Assembly (NCBI GenBank): GCA_050273025.1
Contig: CP158635.1
Location: 13,516,001 to 13,580,000 of the forward strand
Source: Cenococcum geophilum
Taxonomy: Eukaryota
Length of the DNA: 64,000 bases
Reading direction: 5' to 3'
The first letter of the stretch is position 1. Every line of letters begins with the position of its first letter. Below are positions 6,621-34,480 of the stretch, piece after piece. Position numbers and translations under genes: made by a program. The notes under the pieces were generated by a model. The model saw only the letters and a program-made list of their open reading frames with translations. It was not told the origin of the DNA and did not search any database.

Positions 6621-7499
6621 AGTAACAGTCCGACATCTAAGCGGGCTTAGACTGCCTAGGCCACGCGCGCTTAGGCTAAATCTTAACGTTGCCACCAAAG
6701 ATAAGCCCCATTCTCAGAAAAGTTAGCAAGATTCTATATACGGCTTAGTTAATGCCTAGAAATACCTAGTACGCCTTAATATAAGATAGGGTGTGGAGTT
6801 AGGCTTACTTTAAAAGTATAAGATAATATATCGTATTTTATATATTTTCTAAAAAATAAATATACGTTTGGTCCTTTTTCTAGTACTTAATAAACTGTTA
6901 TAATAGAACCTAGCGCCAGGTTTCCAAAGGCACGTAATTACTAGTAAAATTGGCTTAAAGCTTCTTTAAGACTAAAAAGTAACCGTCTGGTAACCGTCTA
7001 GTAACAGTTTAGTAGAGGTCTAGATATAGTAAAGGTAACTATTCTTAAGGGGTGCTACTAGGAATTTGGCCTTATCTACTAAATTTTCTAAAAAAAATCT
7101 TAAAAGCGGGCATGCGCTATAAGCACGAATTTTTTAATATAGTAGATACTAAATCTTATTATAAATTCTAAATGCGCACTTATAATTTATTAGAAAAAAC
7201 GAGAGGAAAAACCGTAAAAAAGTTTTTTCATTTTATTGCGCTAATTAAGATCATTATTATCCTAAGGCCGAGATTCCCCTTTAAGTTCTTAGTATTTCTA
7301 AGCAATTTAGTAATTACTCTTATATAATAATAATTCATTGCTTAACGTCCGATTTGGATCCCTATTAGGCCCACGCGGACTACTCCTTATTTACATATGG
7401 GGAGAAAACTCTATTTAAGAAAAATAAGAAAACCCCGTGATCCATCTCCCCGCCTTTTAGGACTCGCCTACTTAGCGCCTATGAGTTGCCTATAGTGCT

Positions 7500-10400
7500 C
7501 TACTACCTTACTATTTAACCTTTTTAGGAACCACTGCTGCCGTAATAAGCCTACAGACGCGCTAGTATTATAAACTATTACTTTACTACTGTAGAGTTAC
7601 TAGGGGGCACCTACTGCTTGCCTTTTTGCCTTCTATTACTATTTCCCTTATAACCTAGAACTAATTTAGTATATTTTAACTAATAAGCTACTAGGTAACC
7701 GCCTTAAGGCCTTTTTATATTAAGAGCAGTGTATTATAGTTCTCTATACCAGCTGCTAAAAGTATTATTTCTTAATTAGTATATAGGGGGCATAGCAGTA
7801 TTACGTATTTTGGTGTCTGTCTTAGCCAGCCATATTTATATCTCGGGCTACCTACTAGGACACCTACCCAGTAAAGCCAATCTTTTAGTCCTATTATTCC
7901 TGTTCTTAAGAGTGTTGCTATTATATTTTCTACCTTTGTTAGGCCTTCTCGGAGCCCTTAGGTATTTACCCCCTATAGCATTAACCATGCTATAGCTTGG
8001 GTTCGTCTTGCCTAAGTTAGCCTCTATACCTTTAACTCCTATTTACCTCTCCAGCGTTAGTCCAACCAGTATTATATTACGGTAGATAGTTTCCTGGCGT
8101 TCTTATATATTCTACTTTAGCTCCTTTCTCTATCTTACTGTTATCTTTACTAACCTCTTATATATCTCCCTTCCTCCTCTATATAGGCCTAGGCCCTAAA
8201 GCGGCACTATTCTTCTTCTACTTTTTTTACCTATTTCTCTAATATCTCTTCCCTACTTTAGGGTTATTGGTTTATTCTCCTACAGGGCACCCTAGGGTCC
8301 CTCTATAGTTTACTTAGGCGTATCTTAATATACTTTATAATATTAGAGTTATATTTATTTTACGTTCTTTATATTACAGCGGCTTTAATATATAACTATA
8401 GGGGGGGAATATTGGATTCCTTCTTAAGCAGTACTATAGCCGTTCACTTGTACCCGCCTGTGATACTCCAAAGGTAGGCTGTTTGGACCTTTTAAAGTAG
8501 TTTAAAAAGTAATTTTAGGGGGCCCTTTTTAGTTTCTCTAATGGCCCAGATACTGGATCCATATATTATAGTTAGCCAAACAACTGCTGTATATAGTAGG
8601 CGTAACCTTTAGAAACATAGACCCTATATAGAATTAATAATCCTAAATAAAGCGATAAACTGTGCTTGGCCTTTACGGGCCGCTTATACTATATATACGC
8701 TCTACTAAAGCTTACTGTCTACCCATACTCCTAATACCCTTAGGCCCTAAACTAGTTAACCCCTAAAGCCTTAGATACGAATTATATACTAGAGATCTAT
8801 AGATTAGTTGCGTTTTCTTATAAAATAGATTAGCTAGTATTTCTCTAGTAAGAATTAGACTCTATGGTGTTTTGCCTACTTTATATAAGTGTTATAGGCT
8901 TTCTCTAGTGTTCTATAGTTCTCTACGGCTGTTAGCCCGTATATAATTAGGTTTATATTATTAACAAAGCCTATCCCCTAGGTCGCCCCTTTCTTAAAAA
9001 AGTTAAGCAGGTTGCTTATAAAGAAAAGGAAGAGTATAGGCGAGAGGGGTAATCCTTGTGGTATTCCTATTATAACTGCAATAGGGGGGCTCTAGTATCC
9101 ACTAAAGACCAGTAATGTTTCTTTCTAGCCTATAAACCCTTAGATAAATTATATAATCCATTCTAGGAAGCCCTTTGCCCTAAGGATATATAGGAGACGC
9201 TCGTAGGGTATATTATTATAGGCACTACTAATATTTAGGCTAAGCATTAATACTACAAAGTCCTTTCGCATCGCCTATGTAGATTTAATAGTGGCAGCGA
9301 GTAGCGTAAGTACTAATAGTATTAAGCGGTTCTTTCTTGCCCCTATTTGGCTTTATGGTAATAGGGCGTGTTCCTTTACCATATCTACTATGCGTTCTGC
9401 TATTACCCTTTCTAAGATCTTACTAAGGGTGTTTTCTAAAGCAATAGGGCGGTAGCTTTTTAGGATTAAGTAATCTGCTTTGCCTTCTTTTCATAAAATA
9501 ACCGTTGTTATAGATCTTCTAAGTTATAGGTAGTAGCCTATAGTAAAGCATACTCTAGCTATATCTATAAGCTAAGGTGCTATAAGTGGCCTATAGGTTT
9601 TTAGGGCCTTATTTGGAATCCTATCTAGTCCTAGTACTATATTATTTAAAAGGCGGCTAATAGTTCTAGCCATTTCCTCTATTATTATGTCGCTGTCGAC
9701 CTATAGGCGAGTTACCAGTGTTTCGCCCGTAATATTACTAAGGTCTACTAGAGCTAGTTAGGGGAAGAACCTTTCTATAAGGATTTTTGCCTTCTTATTG
9801 TTGTTATTTATAGCCTATAATTCTCCTACTTTTTATAGGGGTGGTAGGTATAGGTCTTCTACTAGGTGCCCTACCTTTTTCTTTACCCATTTCGCTATAT
9901 CCTAAAGGCCCTTATTATAGGGGAGGCTCGGGTTAAAAGTATGCTTATTTATAAACCATCTCCAGTTATTCCTTACTTCTTTTTTTAGGGTATTCTTTAG
10001 CTAGTTTCTTATGTCTTTATATTGTCTCTTGTCTTTAGGGTCGTGGCTACTTATATATTTCCTTCTTACTTATTATTAGCTGGTAACCAGAACTGCGTAT
10101 TATATAGACTATATATATCGCGCGTAGGGGCCCAGTTTTAAGATCGGGCAGTGCTCTTTTAGCCTATTTTTAATTGCTGCCTAGATCCTTTCTAGTCTTC
10201 GGTTAATTTCCTTAGGGGTAGTTAATAGGCCTCGCTCGTTTGGTATTAGGTAGATTTCTTCTAGGTCTTAGAGTTGTTATTTAACTACATTAAGGAAACT
10301 GTCTGTCTTAAGCTTCCTTATTACGTATCTTTTTCTATTTAGTTGCGCTTTAGTATCTAGGTCTAGCTATATCTAAATAGGGATATAGTCTAAGGTAAGT

Positions 10401-11030
10401 GCCCATTCTTCTTTGGGGTTACACCTTTTAAGTCTCTAGTATAGGCCTTTATCCATAAATATAAGGTTAATTATACTTCTAGCGGTGCCTTATTGCCATA
10501 TAATTACTCCTAAGGGGGTAGCTAGCTTAAGGCCCCAGATATCTATAGCTCTTAGTAGGCACTCTAACTATTAGTCTGCAGCAATATAGATACCCCCCTA
10601 CTACGGGTAGTGGAGGTTTATATCTCCTAATAGAATAAACTCTATACCTTTAGTTTTTAGTAAGCTTATTACTAATATAATATTCTCTATTTATAGGACC
10701 CCTTCGACCCTAGGGTTATATACATTAATAATTTATACCGGTCCCCTATATATTTAAATTATTATAACTATAATATCTAGGTTAACTGCCTGCCATAACT
10801 ATAAGGACAGGCTAATAGCCTTGCTAATTATAAAGCACACATATATAGCTGCTTTTAGTTTATATAGGAGCTGGAATTCTTAGGGGCAGTATGTTGATTA
10901 TGTGAAGGTATTATAATATAGCTCTTATATAGCAAGGATATAGTATTTCTCTAGGTCTAGACTATCTAGTAGGGGCCTTGCAAGGCGGTGGTTTATGTTG
11001 CCGCAGTTATATTATATAATGGATAGGTAG
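7500..11030 (-). pseudogene. LINE ORF2 (APE endonuclease plus reverse transcriptase), RIP-disrupted
   Basis: With RIP reversed: IIQYNC ~11010, LAIQEP ~10925, LGDINLHHPWWGG ~10610, YRPIALENTLSKILE ~9440, LDISGAYD ~9225, GIPQGLPLSPILF ~9045, GFVDD ~8965; 3' end approximate. Confidence 0.9.
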
Positions 11031-11034
11031 CGGA

Positions 11035-12785
11035 CCCCCGGCGAGGGTCCTTTAACTCTCCTTTATTCCTCGCTTTTTCTATTTCCACTTTCTCTAGAAT
11101 ATTTAGAGCTTCTATCTCTTATATCTATACCCTAGTTACTACTTATTTTATATAGAGCTTTCTATTCCCGTGTCTTATATTCCTGTTAGCGCTTCTATAT
11201 CTAAATCTATTATTATTACTAGTTCTTCCCCTGTTCTTACTAGTTGGCTATATACCCTTTATAGGTTGGCTGCGAATATTATATTTACCGTATTAAGTCT
11301 AATTCTTAATTATCCTAGTCTTAAGCCTACTATTGCTGTCTATAGGGGTCTTCCTACAGGGCGTCCTCTCCCTTGTGTCCCCTGTGACCCTTATGTCCCT
11401 AATTAGTCTAGTGATATCGCGCGGCGTTGCTTCTAGCCCGTTAAGGCTTAGGATGGCTGGCCTAGCCCTCTAGTATTAAAAGTAGGAAACGCTAAAAAGG
11501 CACCTGCGTCCCCCTAGCTTATCGCCTATTATTTCTATTCGTATAACCTAGCGTACAGTTATTCCCGCAGCTGTTAAGCCCTTGCCTTCCGTCTCCTATA
11601 TTTAATACAGTCTTCTCTCTCCTACGCCTTATGTATACTTTAGTGGCAGTTTACGCATTTTATTTGGTCTTAATTTAAGCAATGTCTCGTATTATGGGGG
11701 CCTATATAGTAGCTACAGCACACCTATGCTGCGTATATAGATTAGGTGTGTCCCTATTATATATAGCGATAGCATTATTCTAGGCATAGTCTATGGTTAT
11801 AGAGCCTTGTGTTATATATAAGGCCATTTATAATTATTCCTTTTTAGATAAGGAGTTTTTGCATTCCTAGTATATATATACTAACAATAAGGGAGCCATG
11901 CGTTTATCCGGCGTCTCCCTAGCGAGTCTCCGGCAACCCTTATATCCTCTTATTATTCTTATTATATGCTTAATTTACATTTTCCTATTAAAGCCATTAG
12001 ATTTGGGTGATTTTAAGTCCTAGTATAAGGCGTTCCGTTTGTCTTACTATCTCCTATATAATTACTATATTGTCCGCCTAGCGTCCCTTTTTTACCCTAA
12101 GGCTTATAGGAACCGCTGGGACTTCGACTAAGTAATCCTCACGGAGTACTTTTATACTAATATATTCTCCTAGCCTATCCCCTACCCTTACGGCTTATTC
12201 CTTTACCTATTAGTCCTTTAGGGTAACTCTAATATCTCCGCTCTTAAGGTGTTAGACTATAACAGCATTATAAACCTCTTTACGTATCTTTATAAGGACT
12301 TCTGTTTCTAATTATCCCCTAAGCCCCTCTGCTTATTCTATGTTTAGTTATATTATAATTATATGCCCGGTTATTAACTTAAGGGGGGTAGGTTCCCTAT
12401 GCTATAAAAGCGCAGCTATAGCGGCCCAGGTGCGGTTCGCCGGTAAGGGGGGGTTATACTTATTTTTAATTTTGCTTAGCCGTTAAAGGATTTAATTGAG
12501 GGTTTGCTAGAGGGGCGCCTAAGGTTCGCTAGACTGGCGGAGCTATTCTACTAGCTATATTAGTTCGTTATAGCTAACGGTTACTCCCCTATAATTCTAG
12601 ATATTAGACGCATCTAATAGGCTTTATATTTTATTAGATGCCTTTTTAATAGAGGTATTTCCGCTTTATAATGTGGTATTCGCCCGTCTTTATTATGGAG
12701 GGCCATTGCTGGGCGTAGTTCTAGCGGTCGCGCGCGAGTGCGAGCCACCGTCGTTCGACGTATGCCTCCCCTGCGATGCATGCAT
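11035..12785 (-). pseudogene. LINE ORF1 (gag-like, CCHC knuckles), RIP-disrupted
   Basis: ATG at 12785 (MHASQGRHTSNDGG...); QCYRC-x2-WGH and further knuckles at ~11600-11780. Confidence 0.8.
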
Positions 12786-12894
12786 CTTAGGGGGATTCTC
12801 TAGGTGTTTTTCAGGGTTCTTTTGGTTGGTTTTAGTCTTTTTGGGCCGGGTGCAGCAAGAGCTCCAGTCAGTTTTTGAGGTCTCTTAATATAGG

Positions 12895-15990: not shown

Positions 15991-16479
15991 GATCTTATAA
16001 CTATACATAATAGATATAGCTATATATTTAGCGTAAGCAGTAGGGTTATAATAGTTATAATATTTATTATAATAAGGCCTTATTATTTTCCTAAATAGAC
16101 TTACTACCTAATTACTAGCCTTCTTATACTATTAAATAATTAACTTTTAATACTCCTATTTAAACTAATAGTATTAGTTAATAACTATTACTTAAACTAA
16201 TTATATAAAAAAGAGAGCTTTTATCTAACCCTTATATAAATATAATATAAATAGATAAACTAAGTAAACTATAGGCCTTATTAAATCTTTAAAAGTATTT
16301 AGGTAATATCTATTTAAATTAATAAAATATTAATATTAATATTTAACTAATCTCTTATAGGTTATTATCTACTTGTTTTTCTTAAATAAATAGTCTCTTA
16401 ATAGGGCTATATTTTATATTTACTAAAGAGTATATACTAGGCACTTATTTTATCTAAAATGCCTTTTATTAGAATTATA

Positions 16480-16820
16480 TATAAGAGGCCAGCTTGACCG
16501 GAACGTATGATTATCTAATTGACAGTGTTACTGGTAAGTAGAAGGTAAGTCAAAGGTAAGTTAAAGGTAAGTTAAAGGTAAGTTAAAGGTAGAATAAGTT
16601 TTACGTATTAAAGGACAAATGCTTTTAACCACTTCTATTTAGAGACTAATTGCTAGTTCTTCTTTAGAGGGGAACTAGCTTTCTATATATTCCTTTTAAG
16701 ACGCTAGTAAAACCTTTCGCCCCTAACCTATCTAACCATGTCTTCTAGAATATAGATAGGATATAGATGAAACCTCTTACCGTCTTATCGGATATATACC
16801 TCTTAGGGGATTCCGTTATA
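16480..16820 (-). repeat. 3' LTR of Gypsy A (341 bp)
   Basis: Direct repeat of 31826-32155 with four GGTAAGTTAAA-type units instead of three. Confidence 0.95.
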
Positions 16821-17413
16821 ATTACCTCCCCTCCTAAGGTCTTAGTCCTCTAAGACTTCGCCTTTACTAAGCTTTTATAGAGTTTTAGCTAAAACTACTG
16901 GGGAAACCCTTAGTAAAAAGGTACTCTATAATGCGACTTATTGCCGGCTCTTTACTAGCGCGGAACTTTACTTTATCTTTTATTCCTTTACTCTTCTCCC
17001 ACCCTAGCTCCTTATAGTGCTTTTATAATAGGATTTTAATAATAGTAATAAAAATTTGGTGGGATTTACCCCTCTAATTTTAGGAATTTGTTGTAAATAG
17101 ATTTAGAGGTTATCTGGTGTAACGCGTTAACTAACTACTAACCCTATTTACCTAAATGGGCTTTAATAATAACGTCTTTTATTTTAATTTTTTTCTATTT
17201 ATAAGTCGTTATCTTTCCCTTGTCCTTCTATTAATAACACTATTCGTCTTATTCTTAAACAGGCTATTTTTATTATATCTCGCCTTTCAGCTTCTATATC
17301 TCTAGCTATACTTCTATTACTGCCTTATTATCTTTTCTTAACGCGTTTATAAGCAGCAGGATCCCTACTTTATCTCTTATAATAATGCTAACTTCTTAAA
17401 GTATTCTCTTATA

Positions 17414-18327
17414 ATGGCTTGTGGTCATTCTGCGCGTCCCTAGACTAGCGGCAGTGTCGTTAATCTCCCGGTAACGCCCTAGACAGCGTCTATTACTCCT
17501 ACAGCAGTTTCCCTAAAATACTATCGTCGCTATATTTATACTCTTACGCAGGATCCTTCCTACATTTATAAGATGCCTTACTCTAGCAAAAACAAATCCA
17601 AGTACTCCTATTATCGTAGTAGGAGAAAAACCTACGTCCTAGTATTTCCTATTCCGTCTTATTCTAGATTTCACTAATTATACTAGATCCCCGCTATCTA
17701 TACGTATAAGACTTATAGGCTCTAACGCGCTATCTAAGATTTCCGCTAATATCCTAATAGTAATAGGCGGGGATAGAAGGTGTCTTCCCTCGCTTATAGA
17801 CTCTTTAATTTTATAAGGGTTTCCACTGCTATAAAAATGTAATGTTCTTGGATATATAGTATCTAAGAGCGTATATACGAACAGCTCGTCCTTATTAATA
17901 ATAATATTTATACTTTTACGCGGGCTACTCTAGCTAGGTAAGTTTCTCTAGTAACTTACTTAGGAACTATGCTAACTCCTTTAGCTAATATCTCTCTAAT
18001 CCCTGCTTAGACGCCAATTTAGAACCTAGGGATACTAAGGATAGCGATAAAGGTTAAGATAAACGTTCTCCTTGCCAGTCTCTTGCCTATGCTAGTCCTT
18101 TCAGTACCCGTTATTCTAAGAAGAATATTAGTGAAAGTGCTAATGCTTCTAGGGATAGAGGAGCCGATAATACTATTAATAATAACGTTAAGATGGAAGA
18201 GGAGGCTCCTATTACTGCTGCTAGTATTTAAGTTATTACCTAGCTCTTTCCTTCTTCTTATAGAATAGCTTTTTATAGTGCCTCTTAGGTGCCTCTAGGA
18301 TGCCCTATTATTAAGAATTAACTTTAT
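17414..18327 (+). pseudogene. Antisense extra gene inside Gypsy A, two introns, N-terminal six-cysteine (Zn2Cys6-like) motif; RIP-disrupted
   Basis: ATG 17414; introns 17642-17686 (GTATTT..CACTAAT..TAG) and 17938-17984 (GTAAGT..GCTAAC..TAG) keep one frame; reading TAT/TAC as TGT/TGC gives C-x2-C-x11-C-x11-C-x2-C-x6-C; stop position uncertain. Confidence 0.65.
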
Positions 18328-19602
18328 ACTTTAGGGATGCCTTTATTCTAAGCTTTAGTAATAATCTATATAAACGCAGTATACTACTATAATCCCCATA
18401 TATAATAAATGGGTGGTATTCCTATAGGTGCCTTATAATTCCTTAAAATCTCTAATTCTTTATAGGCTGTCCTTTTGCTCCTCTTCGTACTATTAACTTT
18501 ACTGTATATCTCCGGTGCCAGGCCAGATACTCTCCTTTTATCCCTAAGGGATCTTTCTAAATCCCTAAGGCCACTTCTTATAATGCTACTGCTTTTTCTT
18601 AAACAGCGTCTTCTTTAAATAGTATCCCTAGTAGTTCTCCTATAGATCTTTATAGGCTTCCTTTTATAGGATTTTAGGATCCCTGTTATAATAGCGAAAC
18701 GTTTCCGTTCTTAATGCCTATGCTTAATCCTATGGTTTTAATTTATAGGGTCTTCTCTATCGCTTCACCTATAGCATATCCGGAACCATTTTTAAGTCTT
18801 TACCTTTGGTTCTTAGGAAGGTTTTAATTGCGGTGTTGTATCTTAGCTAAAGGTACTTTTTAAGTTCCTAACTATTATACGCCTAGAAGTATCCTTCCTA
18901 ACGAACTAAAAATTCGCGCTTCTTCTGGCGCTATCTTTAGTCTAAAATGTCTTCTACATTCCATTCTAGTTCCCTATTAATTTCGCTAGGTAGGGGTAGT
19001 TCCGCACTATCTTTTCTCTAGTATAGCTCTAGTAAGGAAATATAAAATATAGGATATATTAGATAAGATTTCGGTAATTCTAATTTATAGGCTTGGTTTC
19101 CTTTAGTTTTTTTAACTATCTTAAAGGGTCTGAGCCACCGGTGATTCAGCTTCTTCTTAATACGTTTTATTTAGATATTTTTTATAAATAGTAAGACTTC
19201 GTCTTCTATCTCAAATTCTTTTAGTATATATTTTTTATTATAGTACCTTTTTTGCACGGCCTGGGCGTCTAGTAAATGCTTTTTAAGTTCCTCTCTACGA
19301 ATTCTTATTTGCTTAATTCTTTCGGACGCTACCAGTGCCTCTTTTTTAGGAACGATGTCCTTAATATTTTAGGGGTTATTTACTTTTACCCCAAACAATG
19401 CTTTATAAGGGGTTATTTTTATACTGCTATAGATGCTTATGTTATATATATGCTGCGCTAGAGTTAACTATAATGTCTAATTATCTTGTTAATAATTAAT
19501 ATAGTAGCGGAGGTAGTGTTCTAACAACGTATTTAGACACTTTATTTACCCGTCTATTTACGGGTAGAAGGTAGTGCTTATCCTTTGCCGTATTTTTAAT
19601 AA

Positions 19603-22600
19603 TAATAATTCATTGCTTAACGTCTAATTTGGATCCCTATTGGGCCCACGCGGACTACTCCTTATTTACATATAGGGAGAAAACTCTATTTAAGAAAAAT
19701 AAGAAAACCCCGTAATCCATCTCCCCGCCTTTTAGGACTTGCCTACTTAGCGCCTACGAGTCGCCTATGGTGCTCTACTACTTTACTGTTTAACCTCCTT
19801 GGGAACCACTGCTGCCGTAATAAGCCTATGGACGCGCTAGTATTATAAACTATTACTTTACTACTATAGAGTTACTAGGGGGCACCTACTGCTTACCCCC
19901 TTGCCTTCTATTACTATTTCCCTTATAACCCGGAACTAATTTAGTATATTTTAACTAATAAGCCACTAGGTAACCGCCTTAAGGCCTTTTATATTAAGAG
20001 CAGTGTATTATAGTTCTCTATGCCAGCTGCTAAGAGTATTATTTCTTAATTAGTGCGTAGGGGGCATAGCAGTATTACGTGTTTTAGTGTCTATCTTAGC
20101 CAGCCATATTTATATCTTAGGCTACCTACTAGGACACCTACCTAGTAAAGCCAATCTTTTAGTCCTATTATTCCTATTCTTAAGAGTATTACTATTATAT
20201 TTTCTACCTTTATTAGGCCTTCTTAGAGCCCTTAGGTATTTACCCCCTATAGCGTTAACTATACTATAACTTAGGTTCGTCTTGCCTAAGTTAGCCTCTA
20301 TACCTTTAACTCCTATTTACCTTTCTAGCGTTAGTCCAACCAGTATTATATTACAGTAGATAGTTTCCTAGCGTTCTTACGTGTTCTACTTTAGCTCCTT
20401 TCTCTATCTTACTATTATCTTTACTAACCTCTTATACGTCTTCCTTTCTCCTCTATATAGGCCTAGGCCCTAAAGCGGCACTATTCTTTTTCTACTTTCT
20501 TTACCTATTTCTCTAATATCTCTTTCCTACTTTAGGGTTATTAGTTTATTCTCCTACGGGGCACCCTAAGGTCCCTCTATAGTTTACTTAGGCGTGTCTT
20601 AATATACTTTATAATATTAGAGTTACATTTATTTTACGTCCTTTATATTACAGCGGCTTTAATATATAACTATAGGGGGGGAATATTAGATTCCTTCTTA
20701 AGTAGTACTATAGCCGTTCGCTTATACCCGCCTATAATACTCTAAAGGCAGGCTATTTAGACCTTTTAAAGTGGTTTAAGGAGTAATTTAGGGGGGCCCT
20801 TCTTAGTTTCTCTAATGGCCCAAATACTGGATCTATATGTTATAGTTGGCCAGATAACTACTATATATAGTAGGCGTAACCTCTAGAAGTATAGACCCTA
20901 TATAGAATTAACAATCCTAGATAAAGCAATAAACTATATTTAGCCTTTATAGGCCGCTTATGCCGTATATACGCTCCACCGGAGCTTACTATTTACCTAT
21001 ACTCCTAATACCCTTAGGCCCTAAACTGGTTAACCCCTAAAGCCTTAGATGCAAATTATATACTAAAGATCTATAGATTAGTTATATTTTCTTATAAAAT
21101 AGATTAGCTGGTATTTCTCTAGTAAGAATTAGACTCTATAACATTTTGCCTATTTTATATAAATGTTATAGGCTTTCTCTAGTGTTCTATAATTCTTTAC
21201 GGCTGTTAGCCCATATATAATTAGGTTTATATTATTAATAAAGCCTATCCTCTAGGTCGCCCCTTTCTTAAAAGAGTTAAGTAGGTTGCTTATAAAGAAA
21301 AGGAAGAGTATAGGCAAGAGGGGTAATCCTTATAGTATTCCTATTGCAACTATAATAGGGGGGCTCTAGTATCCGCTAAAGACTAGTAATATTTCTTTCT
21401 GGCCTATAAACCCTTAGATAAATTATATAATCTATTTTAAGAAGCCCTTTACCCTAAGGATATATAGGAGACGCTTATAAGGTATATTATTATAGGCACC
21501 ACTAATATCTAGGCTAAGTATTAATACTATAAAGTCCTTTTATATCGCCTATATAGATTTAATAGTGGTAGTAAGTAGCGTAAGTACTTATAGTGTTAAG
21601 CGGTTCTTTCTTGCCCCTATTTAGCTTTATAGTAGTATAGTATATTCCTCTACTATATTTACTATGCGTTCCGCTATTACCCTTTCTAAGATCTTGCTAA
21701 GGGTGTTTTTTAAGGTAATAGGGCAGTAGCTTCCTAGGATTAAGTAATCTACTTTACCTTCTTTTTGTAGAATAACCGTCGTTATAGATCTTCCGAGTTG
21801 TGGGTAGTAGCCTATAGTAAAGTATGCTCTAGCTACATCTATAAGCTAAGGTGCTATAAGTAGCCTATAGGTTTTTAGGGCTTTATTTGGAATTCCATCT
21901 GGTCCTAATGCTATATTATTTAAAAGGCGGCTAATAGTTTTAGCTATTTCCTCTATTATTATATCGCTGTTAACCTATAGGCAAATTACTAGTATTTCGC
22001 CCGTAATATTACTAAGGTCTACTAAAGCCGGTTAGGGAAAGAACCTTTCTATAAGGATCTTTGCCTTCTTATTATTATTATTTATAGCCTATAATTCTCC
22101 TACTCTTTATAAGGGTAGTAGGTATAGATCTTCTGCTAGGCGCCCTACCTTTTTCTTTACCTATTTTGCTATAGCCTAAAGGCCTTTATTATAGGGGAGG
22201 CTCGGGTTAGAAGTATACTTATTTATAAACTATCTCTAGTTATTCCTTACTTCTTTTTTTAGGGTATTCTTTAGCTAGTTTCTTATATCTTTATATTATC
22301 TCTTATCTTTAGAGTTATAGCTACTTATATATTTCCTTCTTGCTCGTTATTAGCTGGTAACTAGAACTGCGCATTATATAGACTATACGTGTCGCGTATA
22401 GGGGCCTAGTTTTAAGATCGGGCAGTGCTCTTTTAGCCTATTTTTAATTACTACCTAGATCCTTTCTAGTCTTCGGTTAATTTCCTTAGGGGTGGCTAAT
22501 AAGCCTCGCTCGTTTAGTATTAGGTAGATTTCTTTTAAGTCTTAGAGTTATTGTTTAACTATATTAAGGAAACTGTCTATTTTAAGCTTCCTTATTATAT

Positions 22601-25143
22601 ATCTTTTTCTATTTAGTTATACTTTAGTATCTAGGTCTAGCTATATCTAGATAGGGATATAGTCTAGGGTAAGTACCTATTCTTCTTTAGGGTTATACCT
22701 TTTAAGTCTCTAGTATAGGCCTTTGTCTATAAATATAAGGTTAATTATACTTCTGGCGGTGCCTTATTGCCATATAATTACTCCTAGGGGGGTAGCTAGC
22801 TTAAGGCCCTAAATATCTATAGCTTTTAGTAGGCACTTTAACTATTAATCTACAGTAATATAGATGCCCCCCTACCGTGGGTAGTGGAGGTTTATATCTT
22901 CTAGTAGGATAAACTTTATACCTTTGGTTTCTAGTAAGCTTATTACTAATATAATATTCTCTATTTATAGGACCCCTTTAACCCTAGGGTTATATACATT
23001 AATAATTTATACCGGTCCCCTATATATTTAGATTATTATAACTACAATATCTAGGTTAACTACCTACTATAACTATAAGGATAGGCTAATAGCCTTGCTA
23101 ATTATAAAGCATATATATATAGCTGCTTTTAGTTTATATAGAAGCTGGAATCCTTAGGGGCAGTATATTAATTATATAAAGGTATTATAATACGGTTCTT
23201 ATATAGTAAGGATATAATATTTCTCTGGGTCTAGACTGTCTAGTAGGGGCCTTATAAGGCGGTAGTTTATATTACCGCAGTTATACTATATAATGGATAG
23301 GTGGCGGACCCCCGGCGAGGGTCCTTTAACTCTTCTTTGTTCCTCGCTTCTTTTATTTTTACTTTCTCTAGAATATTCGGAGCTTCTATCTCTTATATCT
23401 ACACCCTAGTTACTACTTATTTTATATAGAGCTTTCTATTCCTATGTCTTATATTCCTATTAGCGCTTCTATATCTAAATCTATTATTATTACTAGTTCT
23501 TCCCCTATTCTTACTAGTCGGCTATATACCCTTTATAGGTCAGCTATAAATGTTATATTTACCGCATTAAGTCTAATTCTTAATTGTCCTAGTTTTAAGC
23601 CTACTATTACTGTCTATAGGGGTCTTTCTATAGGGCGTCCTCTCCCTTATATCCCCTATAACCCTTATATCCCTAATTGGTCTAGTAATATTACGTAGCA
23701 TCGCTTCTGGCCCATTAAGGCTTAGGATGGCTAGCCTAGCCCTTTAGTATTAAAGGTAGGAAATGCTAGAAAGGCGCCTGCGTCCCCCTAGCTTATTGCC
23801 TATTATTTCTATTTATATAACCTAGCGTACAGTTATTCCCGTAGCTATTAAGCCCTTACCTTCCGTCTTCTGTATTTAATACAGTCTTCTCTCTCCCACG
23901 CCTTATATATGCTTTAGTAGCAGTTTACGCATTTTGTTTAGTCTTAATTTAAGCAATATCTTATATTGTAGGGGCCTATATAGTAGCTGTAGTATACCTA
24001 TACTGCGCATATAGATTAGGTGTGTCCCTATTATATATAGTAATAGTATTATTTTAGGCGTAGTCTGTAGTTATAGAGCATTATATTATATATAAGGCTA
24101 TTTATAATTATTTCTTTTTGGATAAGGAGTTTTTACATTCCTAGTATATATATGCTAACAATAAGGAAGCTATACGTTTATCCAGCGTCTCCCTAGCGAG
24201 TCTCCGGCAACCCTTATATTATTTTATTATTTTTATTATATACTTAGTTTATATTTTCTTATTAAAGCTATTAGATTTAGGTGATTTTAAGTCCTAGTAT
24301 AAGGCGTTCCGTTTATCTTACTATCTCCTATATAATTACTATATTATCCGCCTAGCGTCCCTTTTCTACCCTAAGGCTTATAGGAACTACTAGGACTTTA
24401 ACTAGGTAATCCTTACGGAGTACTTTTATGCTAATACATTCTCCTAGCCTATCCCCTACCCTTACGGCTTATTTCTTTACCTATTAGTCCTTTAACTCTA
24501 ATATCTCCGCTTTTAAGGTATTGGACTATAACAGCGTTATAGACCTCTTTACGTATCTCTATAAGGACTTCTATTTCTAATTATCCCCTAAGCCCCTCTA
24601 CTTATTTTATATTTAGTTATATTATAATTATATACCCGTTTATTAACTTAAGGGGGGTAGGTTCCCTGTGCTATAAAAGCGCAGCTACGGCGGCCTAGGT
24701 GCGGTTTGCCGATAAGGGGGAATTATACTTATTTTTAATTTTGCTTAGCTATTAGAGGATTTAATTAAGGATTTACTAGAGGGGCGCCTAAGATTCGCTA
24801 GACTAGCGGAGCCATTCTACTAGCTATATTAGTTTGTTATAGCTAATAGTTACTTCCCTATAATTTTAGATACTAGACGCGTCTAATAGGCTTTATATTT
24901 TATTAGATACCTTCTTAATAGAGGTATTTCCGCTTTATAGTGTGGTATTCGCCTATCTTTATTATAGAGGGCCATTGCTAGGTGTAGTCCTAGCGGTCGC
25001 ACGTAAATGCAAGCCACCGTCGTTTAACGTATGCCTCCCCTGCGATGCATGTATCTTAGGGGGATTCTCTAGGTGTTTTTTAGGGTTCTTTTGGTTGGTT
25101 TTGGTCTTTTTGGGCCAGGTGCAGCAAGAGCTCCTTTTTTTGG
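19603..25143 (-). mobile_element. Tad1-like LINE copy 2, inserted in the Gypsy A integrase
   Basis: Homologous to copy 1; 18-bp TSD TTGCCGTATTTTTAATAA (19585-19602 and 25144-25161); 9 extra bases at the 5' junction. Confidence 0.95.
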
Positions 25144-27074
25144 TTGCCGTATTTTTAATAAGAGATAAAATAAAGACTAAAATATACTATTAAATACGGT
25201 ACCTCTATTAGATACGATTCCCCTTAGCGTACTAAATAAGAGCTACTGTTTTAAAAATAGGTCTGCCAGTTCTGCTGCTGTGATCGTTATTATAATAGTA
25301 AAGTATCCTAAAAACTTTATATACCTATTAACGATTACTAGGATAGCGTTAGCAACCTCTTTAGTTCTTATCTTAGTAGGGGGTAAGCCTATAATAAAAT
25401 TCATTATTAATTCTAATATAGGTCCCTACGGAATAGGAAGTACTAATAACTCGCCGTATAGGCGATGCCTGGATATCTATATCCTTTAGCACGTATTATA
25501 CCTCAATATATAGTCCTTAACCTCTTTAGACATTCTGTCCTAAAAGTATTTCCTTTAAACGGCCTTAAGGGTTCTATTGGCACCGTAATAACCCCTAAGA
25601 GGGTTATTATGGAAGACCTTTAGAATTTCGTCTTAAATTGCTTAGTCCTTTAGGATATATACAGCACCCTTAAAGCGTAATAGACCCTTTTAGTCTTACT
25701 ACTATAGCTTCTTAGTAACTCTAGCTAAGTTAGTCTCTACTATATCTTTCCACCTCTCCCTAGAGGCGAAGGCGTCCCTTTATTAAGCTTAAAGAAGAAG
25801 ATCTAGAAAGGTTTTATGTAGATTACTTACTTCCGTTTCGCCTGCCGCTATTATAGACTTAAGGTATAGCACGAGACGTTTTAAACCATTAATGCTAGTA
25901 GATTTTCCTACTATTATGCAGTATACCACGCTACGGATAGGTATCTCGCTTATCCCCTTTAGATCCGAAAACTCGCAGCTAATACGCCGTCGAGTTAAAG
26001 GTGCCGTAATACCTCTAGCATATCCTATAGAATTCTTACTAATTCTAGGGTACGCTAACTTTATAACGTCTACTTGGTCTATAACCTAGTCTATAACTAT
26101 ATTCTATAGCTCTACAATTATATTGCTTCGCAGCTATATCGCTAGGACTTCTGTCTTACCGCGAAATTCTATAGTTCTAGGGAAAGAGTCTTCTTTTTTC
26201 CTGAGCAAATTTTGCAATATAGGGATTATTTCCCCTATGCTGTCCTAGATCCTCTCTGTCTTATAATCTAGACGTCTTAATAACCTATTGGTAGGATTTA
26301 TCTTCCCTAGGCGGTACGTAATTTTAAAGTTATACTATAATAGTGCCTCTGCCTATCTTGCTTATTAACCGCTTAACACCTTTATAGTTATAAAGTATTT
26401 TAGGTTATTATAGTCTATAAGGACTTTAATGGGATAATTGCTTCCTATACAATAATATCGCCAGTACTTTATTACTGCGATTATTATAAGCAGCTCCTAG
26501 TCGTGCGTTATGTAATACTGCTCTATAAGAGTTATTTTCCTTAACTAAAACGCCATAGGATGCTATTTTCCGTCTTTTAATTAAGATATAATTACCCCTA
26601 GGGTAAAGCCGGATGTATCTATTTTAAGGTATATACGTAGCTCCTAGTAAAAGTGTATTAGGATAGGCACTAATATAAATTAATCCTTTAACTGGTCTAT
26701 AGCCTACTTAGTAGCTTCCCTAAATATAAAGGGTCCTAACTTCTTACTATTCTTAAATCCTTTTAGTAGATTAGTAATTAGGAGTATTACTTATAAGTAA
26801 TAAATAATAAACGTTTAGTAGAAGTTTGCTGTGCCTAAGAAAACCTATACTTCTCTAAATGTTATAGGGTAGGGCTATTCCCTAATGGCGTCTACCCAAC
26901 TTTTCTCTATTAACACTCCGTTAACGCTAACAATAAAGCCTAAAAAATTAATGCTAGTAGTATAGAACGTGCACTTTTTTAGGTTTATATAGAGCTTATA
27001 TTCCCGCAGTCTTTCTACATCGGGAAAATATTCGCAGGATAAGATTTAAGTTGACTTTGGTGTTCGCGTTTCGC

Positions 27075-27590
27075 GTAATTAACATGCAATTTGACCAACT
27101 CGACACGCAATTAACCAACTTGATACGCAATTAACCAACTTGACACGTAATTTGACCAACTCAATACGTAGTTAACCTACTTAACATGCAATTTAACTAA
27201 CTTAACACGCAGTTGACCTACTTAATATATAATTTAACTAACTTAACACGCAGTTAACCTACTTAATATGCAATTTAACTAACTTAACACGCAGTTAACC
27301 TACTTAACATACAATTTAACTAACTTAATACGCAGTTAACCTACTTAATATGCAATTTAACTAACTTAATACACAGTTAACCTACTTAATATGCAATTTA
27401 ACTAACTTAATACGCAGTTAACCTATTTAATATATAATTTAACTAACTTAATACGCAGTTAACCTATTTAATATATAATTTAACTAACTTAATACGTAGT
27501 TGACCTACTTAATATATTTAAAAGTTAAATAACACGTAGTTAACCTACTTAACAACTTTAAAAGCTAACTGTATATTCCTTAACATGCAA
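27075..27590. repeat. Minisatellite of alternating 20/21-bp units (TTAACACGCAGTTAACCTAC / TTAATATGCAATTTAACTAAC)
   Basis: Tandem array visible directly. Confidence 0.9.
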
Positions 27591-27644
27591 TTAAGGTAAA
27601 GTTATATGCTAATTACGCAAATGAATTTTTATACAGTTTTATTA

Positions 27645-28107
27645 CTTAGAGGCTCTGTATAAGGCTCTACACAAAGCTCTATATAAAGCTCTGCGTATAG
27701 AGGCTCTGCACGAAGCTCTGCACGAAGCTCTGTATAAAGCTCTATATAAAGCTCTGCACGAAGCTTTGCACGAAGCTCTACACAAAGCTCTGTATAAAGC
27801 TCTGCATAAAGCTCTGCACGAAGCTCTGTACGAAGCTCTATATAAAGCTCTGCACGAAGCTCTGTATAAAGCTCTGCACGAAGCTCTGCACGAAGTTCTA
27901 TATAAAGCTCTACACGAAGCTTTGTATAAGGCTCTACACGAGGCTCTATATAAAGCTCTACGTATAAAGGCTCTACCCAAAGCTCTACGTATAGAGGCTC
28001 TACGCGAAGCTCTGCGTATAAAGGCTCTGCACGAGGCTCTGCACGAAGCTCTACATAAGGCTCTACGCGAAGCTCTATATATAGAGGCTCTACATAAAGC
28101 TCTGCAT
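27645..28107. repeat. 12-bp minisatellite (GAAGCTCTGCAC and RIP variants)
   Basis: Tandem array visible directly; source of the HEAL/YKAL repeat ORFs. Confidence 0.9.
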
Positions 28108-28224
28108 CGGGTCCCCGCTATATTCCCAATAGCCTCTCCTATATAGCCACCTTATTTTTTTTATCCATCTATCCTTCTTTATATCCTCCCTACCTAGGGA
28201 GGCACCAGAATGGCAGCTAGTAGA

Positions 28225-28620
28225 GGACTGTCGCCAGAACTAGACGATTGTTACTAGAACGGCAGCTAGCAGAGGACCGTCGCTAGAACTAGACAACCGT
28301 TACTAGAACCAGACGACTGTCGCCGTCGCCAGAACTAGAACACCGTTATTAGAACTAGACGACCGTTGCTAGAATAAGACGACCGTCGCCAGAACTAGAC
28401 GACTATCGCTAAAACTAGACAACCATTATTAGAACTAGACAACCGTTGCCGTCGCCAGACGACCGTTACTAGAACCACACAACCGTCGCCAGACGACCGT
28501 CGCCAGAGCTAGACGACCGTCGCTAGAACTAGACGATTATTGCTAGAACTAGACAACCGTTACTAAAACTAGATAACCGTCGCTAGAACCAGACGACCGT
28601 CGCCAAAGCTAGACGATAAC
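28225..28620. repeat. ~20-bp minisatellite (GACCGTCGCCAGAACTAGAC)
   Basis: Tandem array visible directly. Confidence 0.9.
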
Positions 28621-28679
28621 GACTAGCCAGTAAACACTATAAATGATTTAATCGATCGATTGAATTAAGGCAGTATAGA

Positions 28680-29100
28680 CAGGTAGGCATAAATAGGGAG
28701 ATACTAACGGGTAGGCAGATGCTAATAGGTAGGCAGATGCAGACTGGTAATTAGATATAGATAGGCAAGCAGATGCAGATAGGTAAGTAAATGCTGACGG
28801 GTAGACAAATATAGATAGGTAGGCAGATATAAATAGGTAGGCGATATAAATAGGTAGGCGATGTAGACAGGTAGGCAATGCAGATAGGTAGGTGATATAG
28901 ATAGGTAAGTAATGTAAACAGGTAGGCGATACAGATAGGTAGGCGATGTAGATAGGTAGGCAATATAGATAGGTAGGCGATATAGATAGGTAGGCAATGC
29001 AGATAGGTAGGCGATATAGATAGGTAGGCAATGTAAACAGGTAGGCGATGTAGGTAGGTAGGTAGATAGGTAGGTAGGTAAGTTAATAGGTAGATAGGTA
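28680..29100. repeat. ~18-bp minisatellite (AGATAGGTAGGCGATGT-type)
   Basis: Tandem array visible directly. Confidence 0.9.
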
Positions 29101-31825
29101 GAAGAGAACCATTGCTATATTATATTAAATTATCTAAAATAATATTTATTTTGCTAGCCTTATAAATAGCCTTAAAGTAGCTTTTATTTATTTAAAATAT
29201 GCTATTAGTATAAAAGAGGTAAATATAATTGTGGTTGCCAAATACGTAGATTGCTAGCAGGTTTCGCGTAGGTTACGCGTAGGCTACGCGCAGGCTGCGT
29301 GTCAAAAAAACACGATATAGGCTAGTCGGTCGAGTTGCCAAATGCCCTCAACTGCGCGCCAATTGCGTCAACCACTAACCATTGAGGCTATTGGTAGGGT
29401 ACCATATTTTGCCGATATAGTACTATTCGCACGTAGTGCGTATATGCTTTATAGTTATTAGAGTAGACTATAATGTTATTAAGGTAGACTATATATATTA
29501 TATCTAATAGGCCTAATAATGCCTTATTAATATAGGCCTAAAATATCGCTAGTGCGTTAGTGAGCCCAAATGGCATTACTAGGTACTTAAAGTGGCCGTA
29601 CTATATTCGGAACGCCGTTTTCTACTTATCGCCGGCTTTAATCCGGATTTAATGGTATATATCTTTTAGATCCAATTATATAAATATCTTTACGCCCAAT
29701 AGCCTATTAATAAGCTCCCCTATTAAGGGTAACAGGTAGCAATTCTTTATAGTAATTTTATTTAGCGCCTAATAGTCAACATAGAGGCGAAGGGTCCCGT
29801 CCTTCTTAGGTATAAATATAATTAGTGCCCCTGCCGGGCTTATAGAGGACCAAATCTATCCTCTCTAAAGATTGTCCACTATATATTAATGTAGTACCGC
29901 TAGCTTATTTTCTAATAGGTTATACAGTAGTCTAAAAAAAGGTTATTTATCTCCTGTGTTTATTTTATGCTCAACTAATATAGGGTTAGGTAAGATTTGT
30001 GCAGCCTCTTTACTAAAAATATCCTCTAAGTCTGTATATTCCTGTAGAATCTCTAGTTCCTTAACTACGTATAGCCGGATATCTAAAAATAAATATCCCG
30101 TATCCCCGTTCTTGGTATTAAGAGTAGCATATATAGCATATACCCACCCTTCTTCTTATATATGGTTTAAGAAAGTCTCTTAATCTTTAACTATAATGCG
30201 CGGTTAAGACTTCCGATGTTAATATAAGGCTAAAGGCCAATTAATGTCCGGATTAACTTAGTAAAGCTATAGGTATCCCAAAATAAGGTTATACCCCTTA
30301 ATTTCTATAGCATAGAAGCGCATCTCCTATATATCCCATAGACTATCGCGGTCCTAGCTGGCCATAGAAAAAGCCTACTCCCCGTAGTATGGAATCCGGT
30401 AGCCTTTAATGCTTTAAACAGTGCGCACCTACGAGCCGCTAAGGTCCAAATCTAATTCTTTTACTAGTAATTAAGAAATAAACCCTATACTCGCGCCACT
30501 GTCCACAAGGCAGTCTCGCGTTACCCATTTATTATTAACTTAAATAGAAACAGGAATAACCATACGGCAGTTTACTCTCTCTTTCTTTTACTAGCCTAGT
30601 ATAAGGGAGTAAAGATCTACTAGGCTGTCTTTTTTCCCAATTAGGCTAACTCTTACTTTTTTTACCAGTAGAAGCGGCTTATATAGCCCTTCTTGCCGTA
30701 GTTATAACAGGTACATGTCTCCCGGTTCCCCTCCTGCGGATTAGGTCTCTGCCTATTATTATTTTAAGGTTAACTAGCATTACTCTAGAGCTATAAGGCC
30801 TACTTATGTTGTCCTTTTATAGAGCGGTTAGGTCGGAATCTACCCCTATTACTAAAGCTAGGTCTAGTCCTACGCTCTTTATTATTAGCGTCTCATTCCT
30901 TTTACTTACCTAAATAGTCTCTTTTAGCACTCTTAATCTAAGTAGCTTTAGAGATAAGCTTTTCTTAAGAGGTAGGAATTTCGCCCTTCTTTTATATGGC
31001 CTATTAAATCTTAGGTTATAGCTTAGTAAGTAGCTGGTAAAGTTATATAGCGTTATCCTATAGATTTAAGTAGGGTATATTATCTTCTAGTTCTTATAAG
31101 TAGTTTATAAACTGGACCACAGTCTAACCATCCTGCTGTTTAGCGTCGTGGTATCACTAGTTATAGTCCATCCCTTAATTAGTAGGGTCTTAGACCTAAT
31201 TAACCAACTAGGTCCTAAGTTTGCTAAATTTAAGAAGTATAGTAAGTTTCTTCTTATAGCGTGTCTATAAACTCTTAACGGTGCTACATAGGAAGGTAAA
31301 AGCAATTAGTGTTTAATTATACTCGTTAGAGTAACGTTTCGGATCTAGCCAAAACTTAGTTTTATATTATTGGATAAAACGATTATAGTTCCGAAGACTA
31401 TCACTATAGTACTTATTAGGTTCCTTTATACGGAATTTAGGTTTTTTTAACGTTATAGCATAGTATAGCGTTACCCCTTTAAGTCTACTTCGTATCTAGG
31501 GTATCTGTACTTCCCCCAATTATCCTTATAATTGTTCTTAGTAGTTTTAATATACTTATCTTAATTATATCTCTAACTCCTTTGTTTTTTATAGGGTCTT
31601 ATATAGCAACCGCTCCAATAACTCCCCAGCGGTAATTGTTCCTAAGGGTCTCGCAAGGTTAGACGGACCAGCCGTGGCTTCTTTGTAGGAAGAGGAAATA
31701 CGCTCCTCTAGGGAGACTCTTTAAGCCTCTTACGGTAAGGGCGTTGCTTCATAGGGTATAGGAGTATAGTCCGTTATTGTTAATTAATAGCCGTACGTTC
31801 CTAACGGATTATAAGCAATTAGAAT

Positions 31826-32155
31826 TATAAAAGGCCAGCCTAACTAGAACGTATAATTATCTAATTAATAGTATTACTGGTAAGTAGAAGGTAAGTTAAA
31901 GGTAAGTTAAAGGTAAGTTAAAGGTAGAATAAGTTTTATGTATTAAAGGGTAAATGCTTTTAACCACTTCTATTTAGAGACTAATCGCTAGTTCTTCTCT
32001 AGAGGGGAATTAGCTTCCTATATGTTCCTTCTAAAACGCTAGTAAAACCTTTCGCCCCTAACCTGTTTGACTGTGTCTTCTAGAACATAGATAGGACATA
32101 GATGAAACCTCCTACCGTCTTATCGGATATGTACCTCCCGGGGGATTCCGTTACA
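31826..32155 (-). repeat. 5' LTR of Gypsy A (330 bp)
   Basis: Direct repeat of 16480-16820; ends CCGTTACA followed by TSD. Confidence 0.95.
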
Positions 32156-32340
32156 TTATACTATAGCTTTTCTAACTTTACTCTTAATTTTATAAAGCTT
32201 TAATAATTTCTTCTATATTCTAAAGAGTATAGTCTTTTATTATTATTTTTAAGCACTATTATTTATTATAGATTTTAGATTCTAATTTTAAATAATAAAG
32301 TACTTTTTAGTTTCTTATATAGAACTAATTACTATTACCC

Positions 32341-34480
32341 CTAAGGCCTATAATAGGCTAGGTAGGTATAGATAATACTACCTTACTTTTTACTTAGTTA
32401 CTAAATAGGTATATAAAAAAGTATATATCTATAAATAATTAACCCCTATTAGGTAATACTTAAAGACCTTATTACGTAAAGAAAAGAGGGGGGAAAGGTA
32501 TTATAGTAGATATTATAGTAGATATAAAGCTTTAGTAGAGCTTTAATAAAGCTCTATACGGAGCTCCGTGTATAGCTTTAGTAGAGCTTTATATAGACCC
32601 TTAGTAGAGCTCTATATAGAGCTTTAAAAGAGCTTCGCAGAGAGCCTTAAGCAGAGCTTTATGCAGAGCTTTAAGTAGAGCCTTTAGTAGAGCTCTATGC
32701 GGAGTCTTAGCAGAGTTTGTATAAAGCTTCAAGGGAGCTTCACAGAGAGCCTTAAGCAGAGCTTCGAGCAGAGCTTCGAGCAGAGCTTCGTGCAGAGCCT
32801 CAAGCAGAGCTTCAAGCAGAGCTTCGTGCAGAGCCTCAAGCAGAGCTTCAAGCAGAGCTTCAAGCAGAGCTTCGTGCAGAGCTTCGAGCAGAGTTCCGTG
32901 CAGAGCTTCGAGCAGAGCCTTTGGTAGAGCTCCATGCGGAGCTTCGGTAGAGCTCTACGCGGAGCTTCGGTAGAGCTCTATGCGGAGTCTTGGCAGAGCT
33001 TCGCAGAGAGCTCTGAGGGAGCTTCGCAGAGAGCCTCTGGCAGAGCCTTTGGCAGAGCTCCGTACAGAGCCTTTGGTTAAGCCTCTGACTCAGTTTTAGT
33101 ACGTGCTGTATTTAACCGAGAGTCTACTAATCTATAATAACTCTAGCTTAAAGCTAAACTCCATAATTAATTTCCCTAGCTACCAAAGCTTTACTAGGGG
33201 CTCTGCACGGGGCTGTGCACGGGGCTGTGCACGGGGCTTTTACAGGCTCTGCATGAGCTCTGTGCGGGCTGTCTACGGAGCTCTACCAAAGGCTCTGCAC
33301 GAAGCTCTGCCAGAGGCTCTCTGCGAAGCTCCCTCAGAGCTCTCTGCGAAGCTCTGCCAAGACTCCGCATAGAGCTCTACCGAAGCTCCGCGTAGAGCTC
33401 TACCGAAGCTCCGCATGGAGCTCTACCAAAGGCTCTGCTCGAAGCTCTGCACGAAGCTCTACTCGAAGCTCTGCTCGAAGCTCTGCACGGAACTCTGCTC
33501 GAAGCTCTGCACGGAACTCTGCTCGAAGCTCTGCACGGAACTCTGCTCGAAGCTCTGCACGAAGCTCTGCTTGAAGCTCTGCTTGAAGCTCTGCTTGAGG
33601 CTCTGCACGAAGCTCTGCTTGAAGCTCTGCTTGAGGCTCTGCACGAAGCTCTGCTCGAAGCTCTGCTCGAAGCTCTGCTCGAAGCTCTGCTCGAAGCTCT
33701 GCTCGAAGCTCTGCTCGAAGCTCTGCTCGAAGCTCTGCTCGAAGCTCTGCATGGAGCTCTGCTCAAAGGTCTGCTTAAGGCTCTGCACAAAGGTCTGCTT
33801 AAGGCTCTCTGCAACGTTCCCTTAAAGCTCCACGTAGAGCTCTACCAAGGCTCTACACGGAGCGCTACTAAAGCTATATATGGAGCTCTACATAAAGCTC
33901 TACCGAAGCTCCGTACGGAACTTTACTAAAGGCTCTACTTAAAGCTCTATATAAAGCTCTGCTTAAGGCTCTCTATAAAGCTCCCTTAAAGCTTTATATA
34001 AAGACTCTATATAAAGCTATACTGAAGCTCTATATAGAACTCTACTAAGGCCCTATATAGGGCTCTACTAAGGCTCTATATAGAGCTCTATACGGGACTC
34101 TACTAAGGCTCTATATAGGGTTCTACTAAAGCTCTATATAAAGCTATACTAAAGCTTTATATAAGGCTCTACTATAGCTTTATATAGAGCTCTATATCTA
34201 CTATAGATTAGATTAAAGTAATTTTTATTAATATTTAGTTCCTATATAAAATAATATTATACTAAATTAGTATTAGGCCATATAAAACTATTAAGCCTTA
34301 ATTAGTAGGAAGTAGATTCTATTTATAAAAAGTAGATATATAATAGGGATTAATTATTTATAAGTAATCCTTTTAAGATATTTAAATATTTATATATACG
34401 TTTTTATAGACCTATTTTATAAATAAGTAAGGAGTAAAGTAGTATTACCTATACCTATCTAACCTATTATAGGGTTTATA
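32341..34480. repeat. Large imperfect palindrome built from the 12-bp GAAGCTCTGC(T/A)C satellite around a ~100-bp unique spacer (~33085-33185)
   Basis: 32897-33046 is the exact reverse complement of 33304-33453; outer unique flanks 32341-32450 and 34341-34480 are also inverted homologues. Confidence 0.9.

Follow-up and report, generated by a model that had tools for sequence, protein, structure and literature searches.

A candidate antisense accessory gene, degraded by repeat-induced point mutation, between pol and the 3' long terminal repeat of a Ty3/Gypsy family in Cenococcum geophilum

Introduction

The window analysed here is a 64,000-nucleotide stretch of the genome of Cenococcum geophilum (assembly GCA_050273025.1, contig CP158635.1, forward-strand positions 13,516,001 to 13,580,000; all coordinates below count from its first letter). 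It holds a Ty3/Gypsy retrotransposon in which the interval from the pol stop to the 3' long terminal repeat (LTR) seems to have carried a spliced gene on the opposite strand. On balance we lean towards reading this region as a defunct antisense accessory gene of the brtn or aORF-3R type. It would have belonged to a high-copy chromodomain Ty3/Gypsy family, lying between pol and the 3' LTR in the orientation opposite to gag-pol, and would have been killed by repeat-induced point mutation (RIP). The ancestral gene of the family probably had three exons (17414-17641, 17687-17937 and 17985-18054) and two short introns, which, lying antisense to the genomic RNA of the element, would not be lost in retrotransposition. 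Its predicted product is a basic protein of about 183 residues with a cluster of seven cysteines and two histidines, C-x2-C-x11-C-x11-C-x2-C-x6-C, together with a run of Arg and Lys, and with a possibly helical central region followed by an acidic tail. Such a product might have been a small nuclear protein which binds metal and nucleic acid and acts on the expression or silencing of the element itself.

Antisense genes placed between pol and the 3' LTR have been described before. In the Boty element of Botrytis and Sclerotinia the extra gene brtn is described at this place (PMC7264820, PMC8365987, PMC4227169), and the account in PMC7264820 names an aORF-3R for the plant LTR retrotransposons Grande of maize, RIRE2 of rice, Retand of Silene and PvRetro13 of Phaseolus.

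Results and Discussion

Gene model

The family copies used here come from metagenome contigs, which were scanned once with a 41-nt pattern degenerate at RIP-prone sites and gave 37 loci. From these copies a RIP-corrected consensus was made in which C or G was called wherever at least two copies have C or G. As the Gypsy element lies on the minus strand, the antisense gene proposed by an initial annotation of this DNA belongs to the plus strand, where the model reads as follows.

17414-17641, plus strand: exon 1, with the ATG, a Pro/Thr/Ser-rich start, the cysteine cluster (17519-17635) and a basic stretch (RIP-corrected model)
17642-17686, plus strand: intron 1, 45 nt, with a GTATTT donor, a CTAAT branch site and a TAG acceptor (model)
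17687-17937, plus strand: exon 2, a basic and possibly helical region (RIP-corrected model)
17938-17984, plus strand: intron 2, 47 nt, canonical fungal intron with GTAAGT, a CTAAC branch site and TAG (model)
17985-18057, plus strand: exon 3, acidic tail, coding to 18054, with a TAA stop at 18055-18057 (RIP-corrected model)

The spliced coding sequence (CDS) would measure 549 nt, a multiple of three, giving 183 codons with one residual stop. From the ATG the consensus frame is open until a TAA at 17675 that is fixed in 37 of 37 copies, and the removal of intron 1 bypasses this TAA as well as a TAG. Past intron 2 another 23 codons follow before a TAA that 34 of 34 copies share; with the modelled stop at 18055-18057 the gene is shorter than the span to 18327 given by the initial annotation. 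The spliced frame of the window copy is interrupted by nine stops and departs from the RIP-corrected family state at 50 of 184 positions. The two early TAGs that the window has in exon 1 are CAG in other copies, that is, RIPped CAG. A further 47-nt 'intron' considered at 17436-17482 is not needed, both stops inside it being RIPped CAG.

The signals of the model recur in the family. The start codon at 17414 is ATG in 15 of 32 copies and ATA in the remainder; its context has A at -3 and G at +4. The donor of intron 1 is GTATTT in 32 of 37 copies and its acceptor is AG in 27 of 37, the other ten having a RIPped AA. For intron 2 the donor could be read in 35 copies (GTAAGT in 29, GTGAGT in five), and of 34 copies 31 have the CTAAC branch site and 33 the AG acceptor. 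ATG, splice sites and frame are retained in family copies, as the initial annotation had supposed. It had also spoken of two canonical introns, and GT..AG introns of 45 and 47 nt are indeed present downstream of the ATG, of which only the 47-nt one is canonical.

The product predicted from the corrected frame has 183 residues and an isoelectric point of about 10. Seven of its nine Cys would lie in the cluster alongside two His, in a segment that also has 11 Arg/Lys, and its last 23 residues would be acidic with seven Asp/Glu.

Cysteine codons behind the tyrosines

The cluster was first proposed from tyrosine codons in the window, which the initial annotation took for RIP-mutated cysteines. These codons are present at 17522, 17531, 17567, 17603, 17612 and 17633, with the proposed spacing of x2, x11, x11, x2 and x6, and at all six positions less-RIPped copies carry Cys and not Tyr or His, the latter having been named in advance as the outcome that would speak against the idea. 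A seventh site lies at 17519. Copies with a Cys codon are distributed over the sites as follows.

17519, seventh Cys site: Cys codon in 24 of 35 copies
17522: Cys codon in 2 of 35 copies
17531: Cys codon in 16 of 35 copies
17567: Cys codon in 3 of 36 copies
17603: Cys codon in 20 of 37 copies
17612: Cys codon in 5 of 37 copies
17633: Cys codon in 8 of 37 copies

The sites with low counts are supported by a background control: two to five copies with G occur in only 5 of 297 A-site columns outside the RIP context, versus 68 of 446 at TpA sites. At the control Tyr/His positions 17537, 17561 and 17609 there is no G among the copies. The other tyrosine codons of the window resolve differently, to His at 17561 and 17609 and to Arg at 17579 (CGC in seven copies), and 17537 stays Tyr. 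In a divergent lineage of the family, short open reading frame (ORF) calls in the protein database likewise keep Cys at several sites of the cluster.

Elsewhere in the same element the gag zinc knuckle, at about 30700-31600 on the minus strand, has Tyr at some of the expected Cys/His positions and provides an internal example of the change from Cys to Tyr by RIP.

Family copies

The region is family-wide. Among the 37 metagenome loci, 36 align to 16757-19602 of the window with identities of 82-90%; the alignment ends at 19602 because the window has an element resembling a long interspersed nuclear element (LINE) nested there, and at this point the other family copies run on into integrase. All copies are RIPped, with a G+C content of 29-37%. 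Contigs from three DNA runs, taken at 80% likeness, span the 2-kb region at a depth like that of integrase and differ almost exclusively by transitions; for run X1 the contig depth is 21,000-115,000 over the 2-kb region versus 54,000-89,000 over integrase. Most family copies have the antisense model gene, which lies on the strand opposite to gag-pol in the interval from the pol stop to the 3' LTR. Within the window a transition-blind (purine/pyrimidine) self-comparison revealed no second copy of the 2-kb region, and when the model was compared with the window and all loci by local tblastn, no other family with the gene emerged.

The copies separate into two subfamilies of 12 and 23 members. 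Their fixed differences are dense in 16757-17343, with many transversions, and almost lacking in 17344-19602 apart from RIP, a pattern which suggests a recombinant 3' end. One-base indels shared within subfamilies are located at 17153 and 17374. The most diverged part is the following.

16836-17413, plus strand: region 5' of the antisense ATG, presumed promoter site, most diverged between the subfamilies (subfamily comparison)

The region together with its upstream flank looks mosaic between the subfamilies, and this would also fit a mere passenger, namely a fragment of a cysteine-rich host gene that was captured in reverse, introns included, by the ancestor of the family and that had no function for the element. 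Capture of genes by LTR elements is described in PMC7264820, and the retained introns and the start codon with A at -3 and G at +4 agree with such an origin. We nevertheless regard it as improbable, as nearly every copy examined has the region (36 of 37 loci), as no protein search returned a similar host gene and as the synonymous bias described in the next section suggests selection during the spread of the family.

Chance and selection

By chance, 2 kb of one strand should contain 0.022 matches to the strict intron pattern, and the sole match on either strand of the 64-kb window is the one at 17938. Six cysteines arranged in a loose version of the pattern occurred in 0.3% of 1000 composition-matched simulations (P = 0.003), with ranges that were chosen after seeing the data. 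The lineage-level in-frame indels within the CDS, both in exon 1, measure 12 and 6 nt, and those just upstream 1 nt. Compared with the divergent copy L012, the CDS has 18 transversions, 9 of which are synonymous in the model frame (expected fraction 0.20, P = 0.004), against 3 of 18 and 5 of 18 in the other frames. With shared variants added the count becomes 9 of 22 (P = 0.02), and none of the changes involves a stop. In pol, which served as control, 4 of 9 transversions are synonymous (P = 0.03). Both the synonymous bias and the two subfamily indels that keep the frame speak for past selection on the model frame.

Several results weigh against this reading. The donor of intron 1, GTATTT, is weak and lacks a G at +5. 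The family consensus, called for by the initial annotation, confirms the Cys codons and leaves the spliced frame with one stop, a TAA at 17735 which persists after RIP correction with T in 35 copies and C in one; such a single-copy C is near background (7.4% vs 5.6% of columns), making the site ambiguous. At least seven Cys within 40 residues occurred in 9.6% of the simulations (P = 0.096). A spliced ORF of at least 183 codons, allowing two lax introns and one forgiven stop, was obtained in 40% of 300 order-2 Markov simulations, and the RIP-corrected consensus has ORFs of about 100 codons on both strands. Under the lax rules the real plus strand reaches a spliced ORF of at most 242 codons (P = 0.07), and given the P value of 0.40 in the simulations the openness of the frame is by itself no evidence. 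Transversions relative to L012 amount to 3.5 per 100 nt in the exons and to 1.1 per 100 nt each in pol and in the spacer. Furthermore, a minus-strand frame at 16918-17413 gave 12 of 33 synonymous changes (P = 0.002, one event per site) with eight changes involving stops, and because this upstream frame also reached P = 0.002 the substitution test may be miscalibrated, with P values that overstate the signal. In this minus-strand frame there are also persistent stops, a frame-breaking indel and a short stretch conserved between the subfamilies.

The residual stop is not decisive, as the genuine pol frame under the same correction likewise keeps two fixed stops in 271 codons. These lie at 19371-19369 and 18885-18883 on the minus strand and are fixed in all 31-32 copies; they may reflect saturation by RIP or a copy that was defective before it spread.

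Much of this would be expected if there had never been a gene. The roughly 2 kb would then be untranslated, non-coding 3' sequence of the Gypsy RNA, possibly with a cis-acting or antisense-promoter role, and chance in TA-rich RIPped DNA and its correction would have produced the open frame, the intron look-alike and the arrangement of Cys. RIP correction strips TA dinucleotides, and hence stops, in every frame, and ORF openness is not significant; another plus-strand frame has eight Cys in 40 residues, with stops. The faster divergence of the exons compared with pol, the missing homologue or domain and the low P value of a clearly non-coding frame all agree with it. This explanation is nonetheless one that we hold to be rather unlikely: the model frame had been fixed beforehand by the initial annotation and still gave 9 of 18 synonymous transversions without any stop, the in-frame indels are solely inside the CDS, the six-Cys arrangement has P = 0.003 and a strictly canonical intron begins exactly where the open exon ends.

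We also considered whether the extra ORF belongs to the sense strand, where a minus frame of 178 codons in the phase of pol (18270-17737) would be the true one and the plus frame its mirror image. It is open from stop to stop in the RIP-corrected consensus, a length reached in 1.5% of 1000 simulations (P = 0.015), and natural copies have as few as two to four stops in it, the window copy having six. At a stricter correction threshold, however, only 135 codons are left, and the best minus-strand ORF starting with ATG has 57 codons, or 91 with one forgiven stop. The frame has no early ATG and shows no synonymous excess (6 of 18, P = 0.14, one change to stop), its sole database match is another ORF call of the same family, and 12 fixed stops separate it from pol. 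Together this makes a sense-strand gene very improbable. A variant in which pol itself continues into the 178-codon frame is ruled out by the same 12 stops, which the pol frame has between 18732 and 18273.

Homology and expression

No relative of the antisense product was found outside the family, which also counts against a gene. Pfam domains were located by six-frame read-through with stops written as X, and this gave no match within the 2 kb. Pfam searches with 32 natural copies of the ORF returned no relevant family and only five families at chance level, and those with five database ORFs returned no match. A profile search of the PDB was without match at E values up to 10. In a profile search of 1.84 billion representative proteins six matches were obtained, four of them ORF calls of the same RIPped family and two of them repeat proteins, and word-index searches of a 5.8-billion-protein index as well as a scan of viral contigs found no relative. 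The ESM Atlas gave no usable match.

For two zinc-related families the natural copies were compared directly. None of the 32 matches PF00172 (Zn_clus) at E values up to 10, these copies having lost most of their Cys to RIP, and neither the 32 natural copies, with most of their Cys lost, nor the five database ORFs match PF12511 (DUF3716).

In RNA run X21, of which about 12% was read, 43 reads were obtained, all of them less than 95% alike, with none in 16945-18034 and no junctions of the model introns.

Comparison with known systems

The closest layout is that of Boty with brtn, as described in the papers cited in the Introduction: a fungal chromodomain Gypsy element with an antisense extra gene between pol and the 3' LTR that is present family-wide. 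The two could be compared by description only; all copies found here are RIP-dead, and the product predicted here has a seven-Cys cluster and an acidic tail. The plant aORF-3R, in the account of PMC7264820, has the same place and orientation, is likewise carried by most copies of a family and is suspected of acting in the nucleus or as a regulator. It differs in its plant hosts and in belonging to element lineages other than chromoviruses; the likeness noted here is that of layout, and none is known in sequence.

With regard to the protein, the Zn(II)2Cys6 proteins (Gal4-type, PF00172) are the obvious point of reference, their motif being given as CysX2CysX6CysX5-16CysX2CysX6-8Cys (PMC2447501). 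The predicted antisense product resembles them as a fungal protein with six Cys in about 38 residues near the N-terminus followed by a possibly helical region, and the second half of its cluster, C-x2-C-x6-C with Arg/Lys, is similar to the canonical first half. It differs by 11 instead of 6 residues between the second and third Cys and by extra Cys and two His. Members of the class bind two zinc ions, and they bind DNA as dimers by way of a coiled coil. Membership of the product in this class, suggested by the Zn2Cys6-like motif of the initial annotation, is not supported, as the canonical first half C-X2-C-X6-C is replaced by a form with X11 in place of X6. Another small fungal protein type without known function that is carried by a mobile element is DUF3716 (PF12511), reported as REP9-1 and REP9-2 in a class II element of Zymoseptoria tritici (PMC8232023); a difference is the absence of PF12511 matches mentioned above, in natural copies that have lost most of their Cys and in the five database ORFs.

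It could also be possible that this Gypsy lineage encodes its own zinc-cluster-like regulator, composed of Cys cluster, basic region and acidic tail, from an antisense, intron-bearing gene beside the 3' LTR, and that this protein drives or protects the expression of the element by binding its DNA or RNA. The X11 spacing would then be a novel variant of the binuclear cluster. We offer this more specific idea tentatively and would not bet on it. It supposes that the transcript was spliced and translated, that the product would bind zinc and DNA and that it would play a regulatory role. The initial annotation had proposed that the product might be a DNA-binding regulator or an anti-silencing factor, with transcription starting from the side of the 3' LTR. 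A literature search found no report that ties a zinc cluster to an antisense gene of Gypsy elements.

To our knowledge, LTR retrotransposons seldom carry accessory genes, and for no such gene is the function settled. Should families of fungal Gypsy elements carry a DNA-binding factor of their own, these elements could steer their own transcription or escape silencing, and the factors they encode could supply regulators to their hosts. The present dead copy adds just one more family to the picture of antisense accessory genes. It does so in a very high-copy family, where the antisense arrangement can be tested and where Cys codons erased by RIP are recoverable from the family copies.

The host element

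The Gypsy element has reverse transcriptase, RNase H and integrase domains in Gypsy order between its LTRs, which are 87% identical over 351 nt (16468-16818 vs 31818-32153). Its parts are listed from the 5' to the 3' end of the element.

About 31818-32159, minus strand: 5' LTR (LTR pair comparison)
29810-29420, minus strand: RVT_1 of the Gypsy element (Pfam, E = 4e-17)
26715-26331, minus strand: RNase H, RT_RNaseH (Pfam, E = 3e-14)
25632-25482, minus strand: integrase zinc domain, Integrase_H2C2 (Pfam, E = 2e-7)
19599-25134, minus strand: LINE-like non-LTR element, 5.5 kb, nested in the integrase gene and separate from the antisense gene (four-copy comparison)
18730-19598, minus strand: C-terminal part of pol with integrase end, SH3, putative chromodomain, basic tail and a stop at 18732 (Pfam and reading)
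19200-19020, minus strand: SH3_Tf2-1 (Pfam, E = 1.4e-10)
18058-18729, no strand assigned: spacer from the antisense stop to the pol stop (reading-frame analysis)
16825-16835, minus strand: polypurine tract, AGGAGGGGAGG on the minus strand, adjoining the 3' LTR (sequence inspection)
16468-16824, minus strand: 3' LTR (LTR pair comparison)

The chromodomain, which we take to lie at about 18972-18814 on the minus strand, was recognised by eye in the RIP-corrected translation from features typical of chromodomains; Pfam gave no chromodomain match in the pol C-terminus. The initial annotation had put about 2 kb between chromodomain and polypurine tract, which agrees well with the distance of about 1.9 kb from the pol stop at 18732 to the tract. 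In the spacer (18058-18729) no frame has an excess of synonymous changes.

The reverse transcriptase of the element is interrupted between about 29420 and 27000 by tandem repeats, which form a block at 27029-29113 with periods of 12, 17, 20 and 41 nt and a G+C content of up to 45%, above that of the surroundings.

The window

The window is gene-poor, RIP-degraded fungal DNA, as follows from its low G+C content (26-40% across most of the 64 kb), its abundant TA dinucleotides and the lack of long ORFs: outside the tandem-repeat blocks no stop-to-stop ORF of at least 150 codons was found in it. The 5.5-kb LINE-like element is present in four copies of about 91% identity (7324-12865, 19599-25134, 40205-45743 and 49259-54799), with an inverted fragment at 54858-55380 and an RVT_1 match at 21755-21098. 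Islands with a G+C content of 51-56% are embedded in the AT-rich DNA at 33000-36600 and 48000-49000, and one of them has overlapping frames of 150-177 codons on both strands at 33373-33929.

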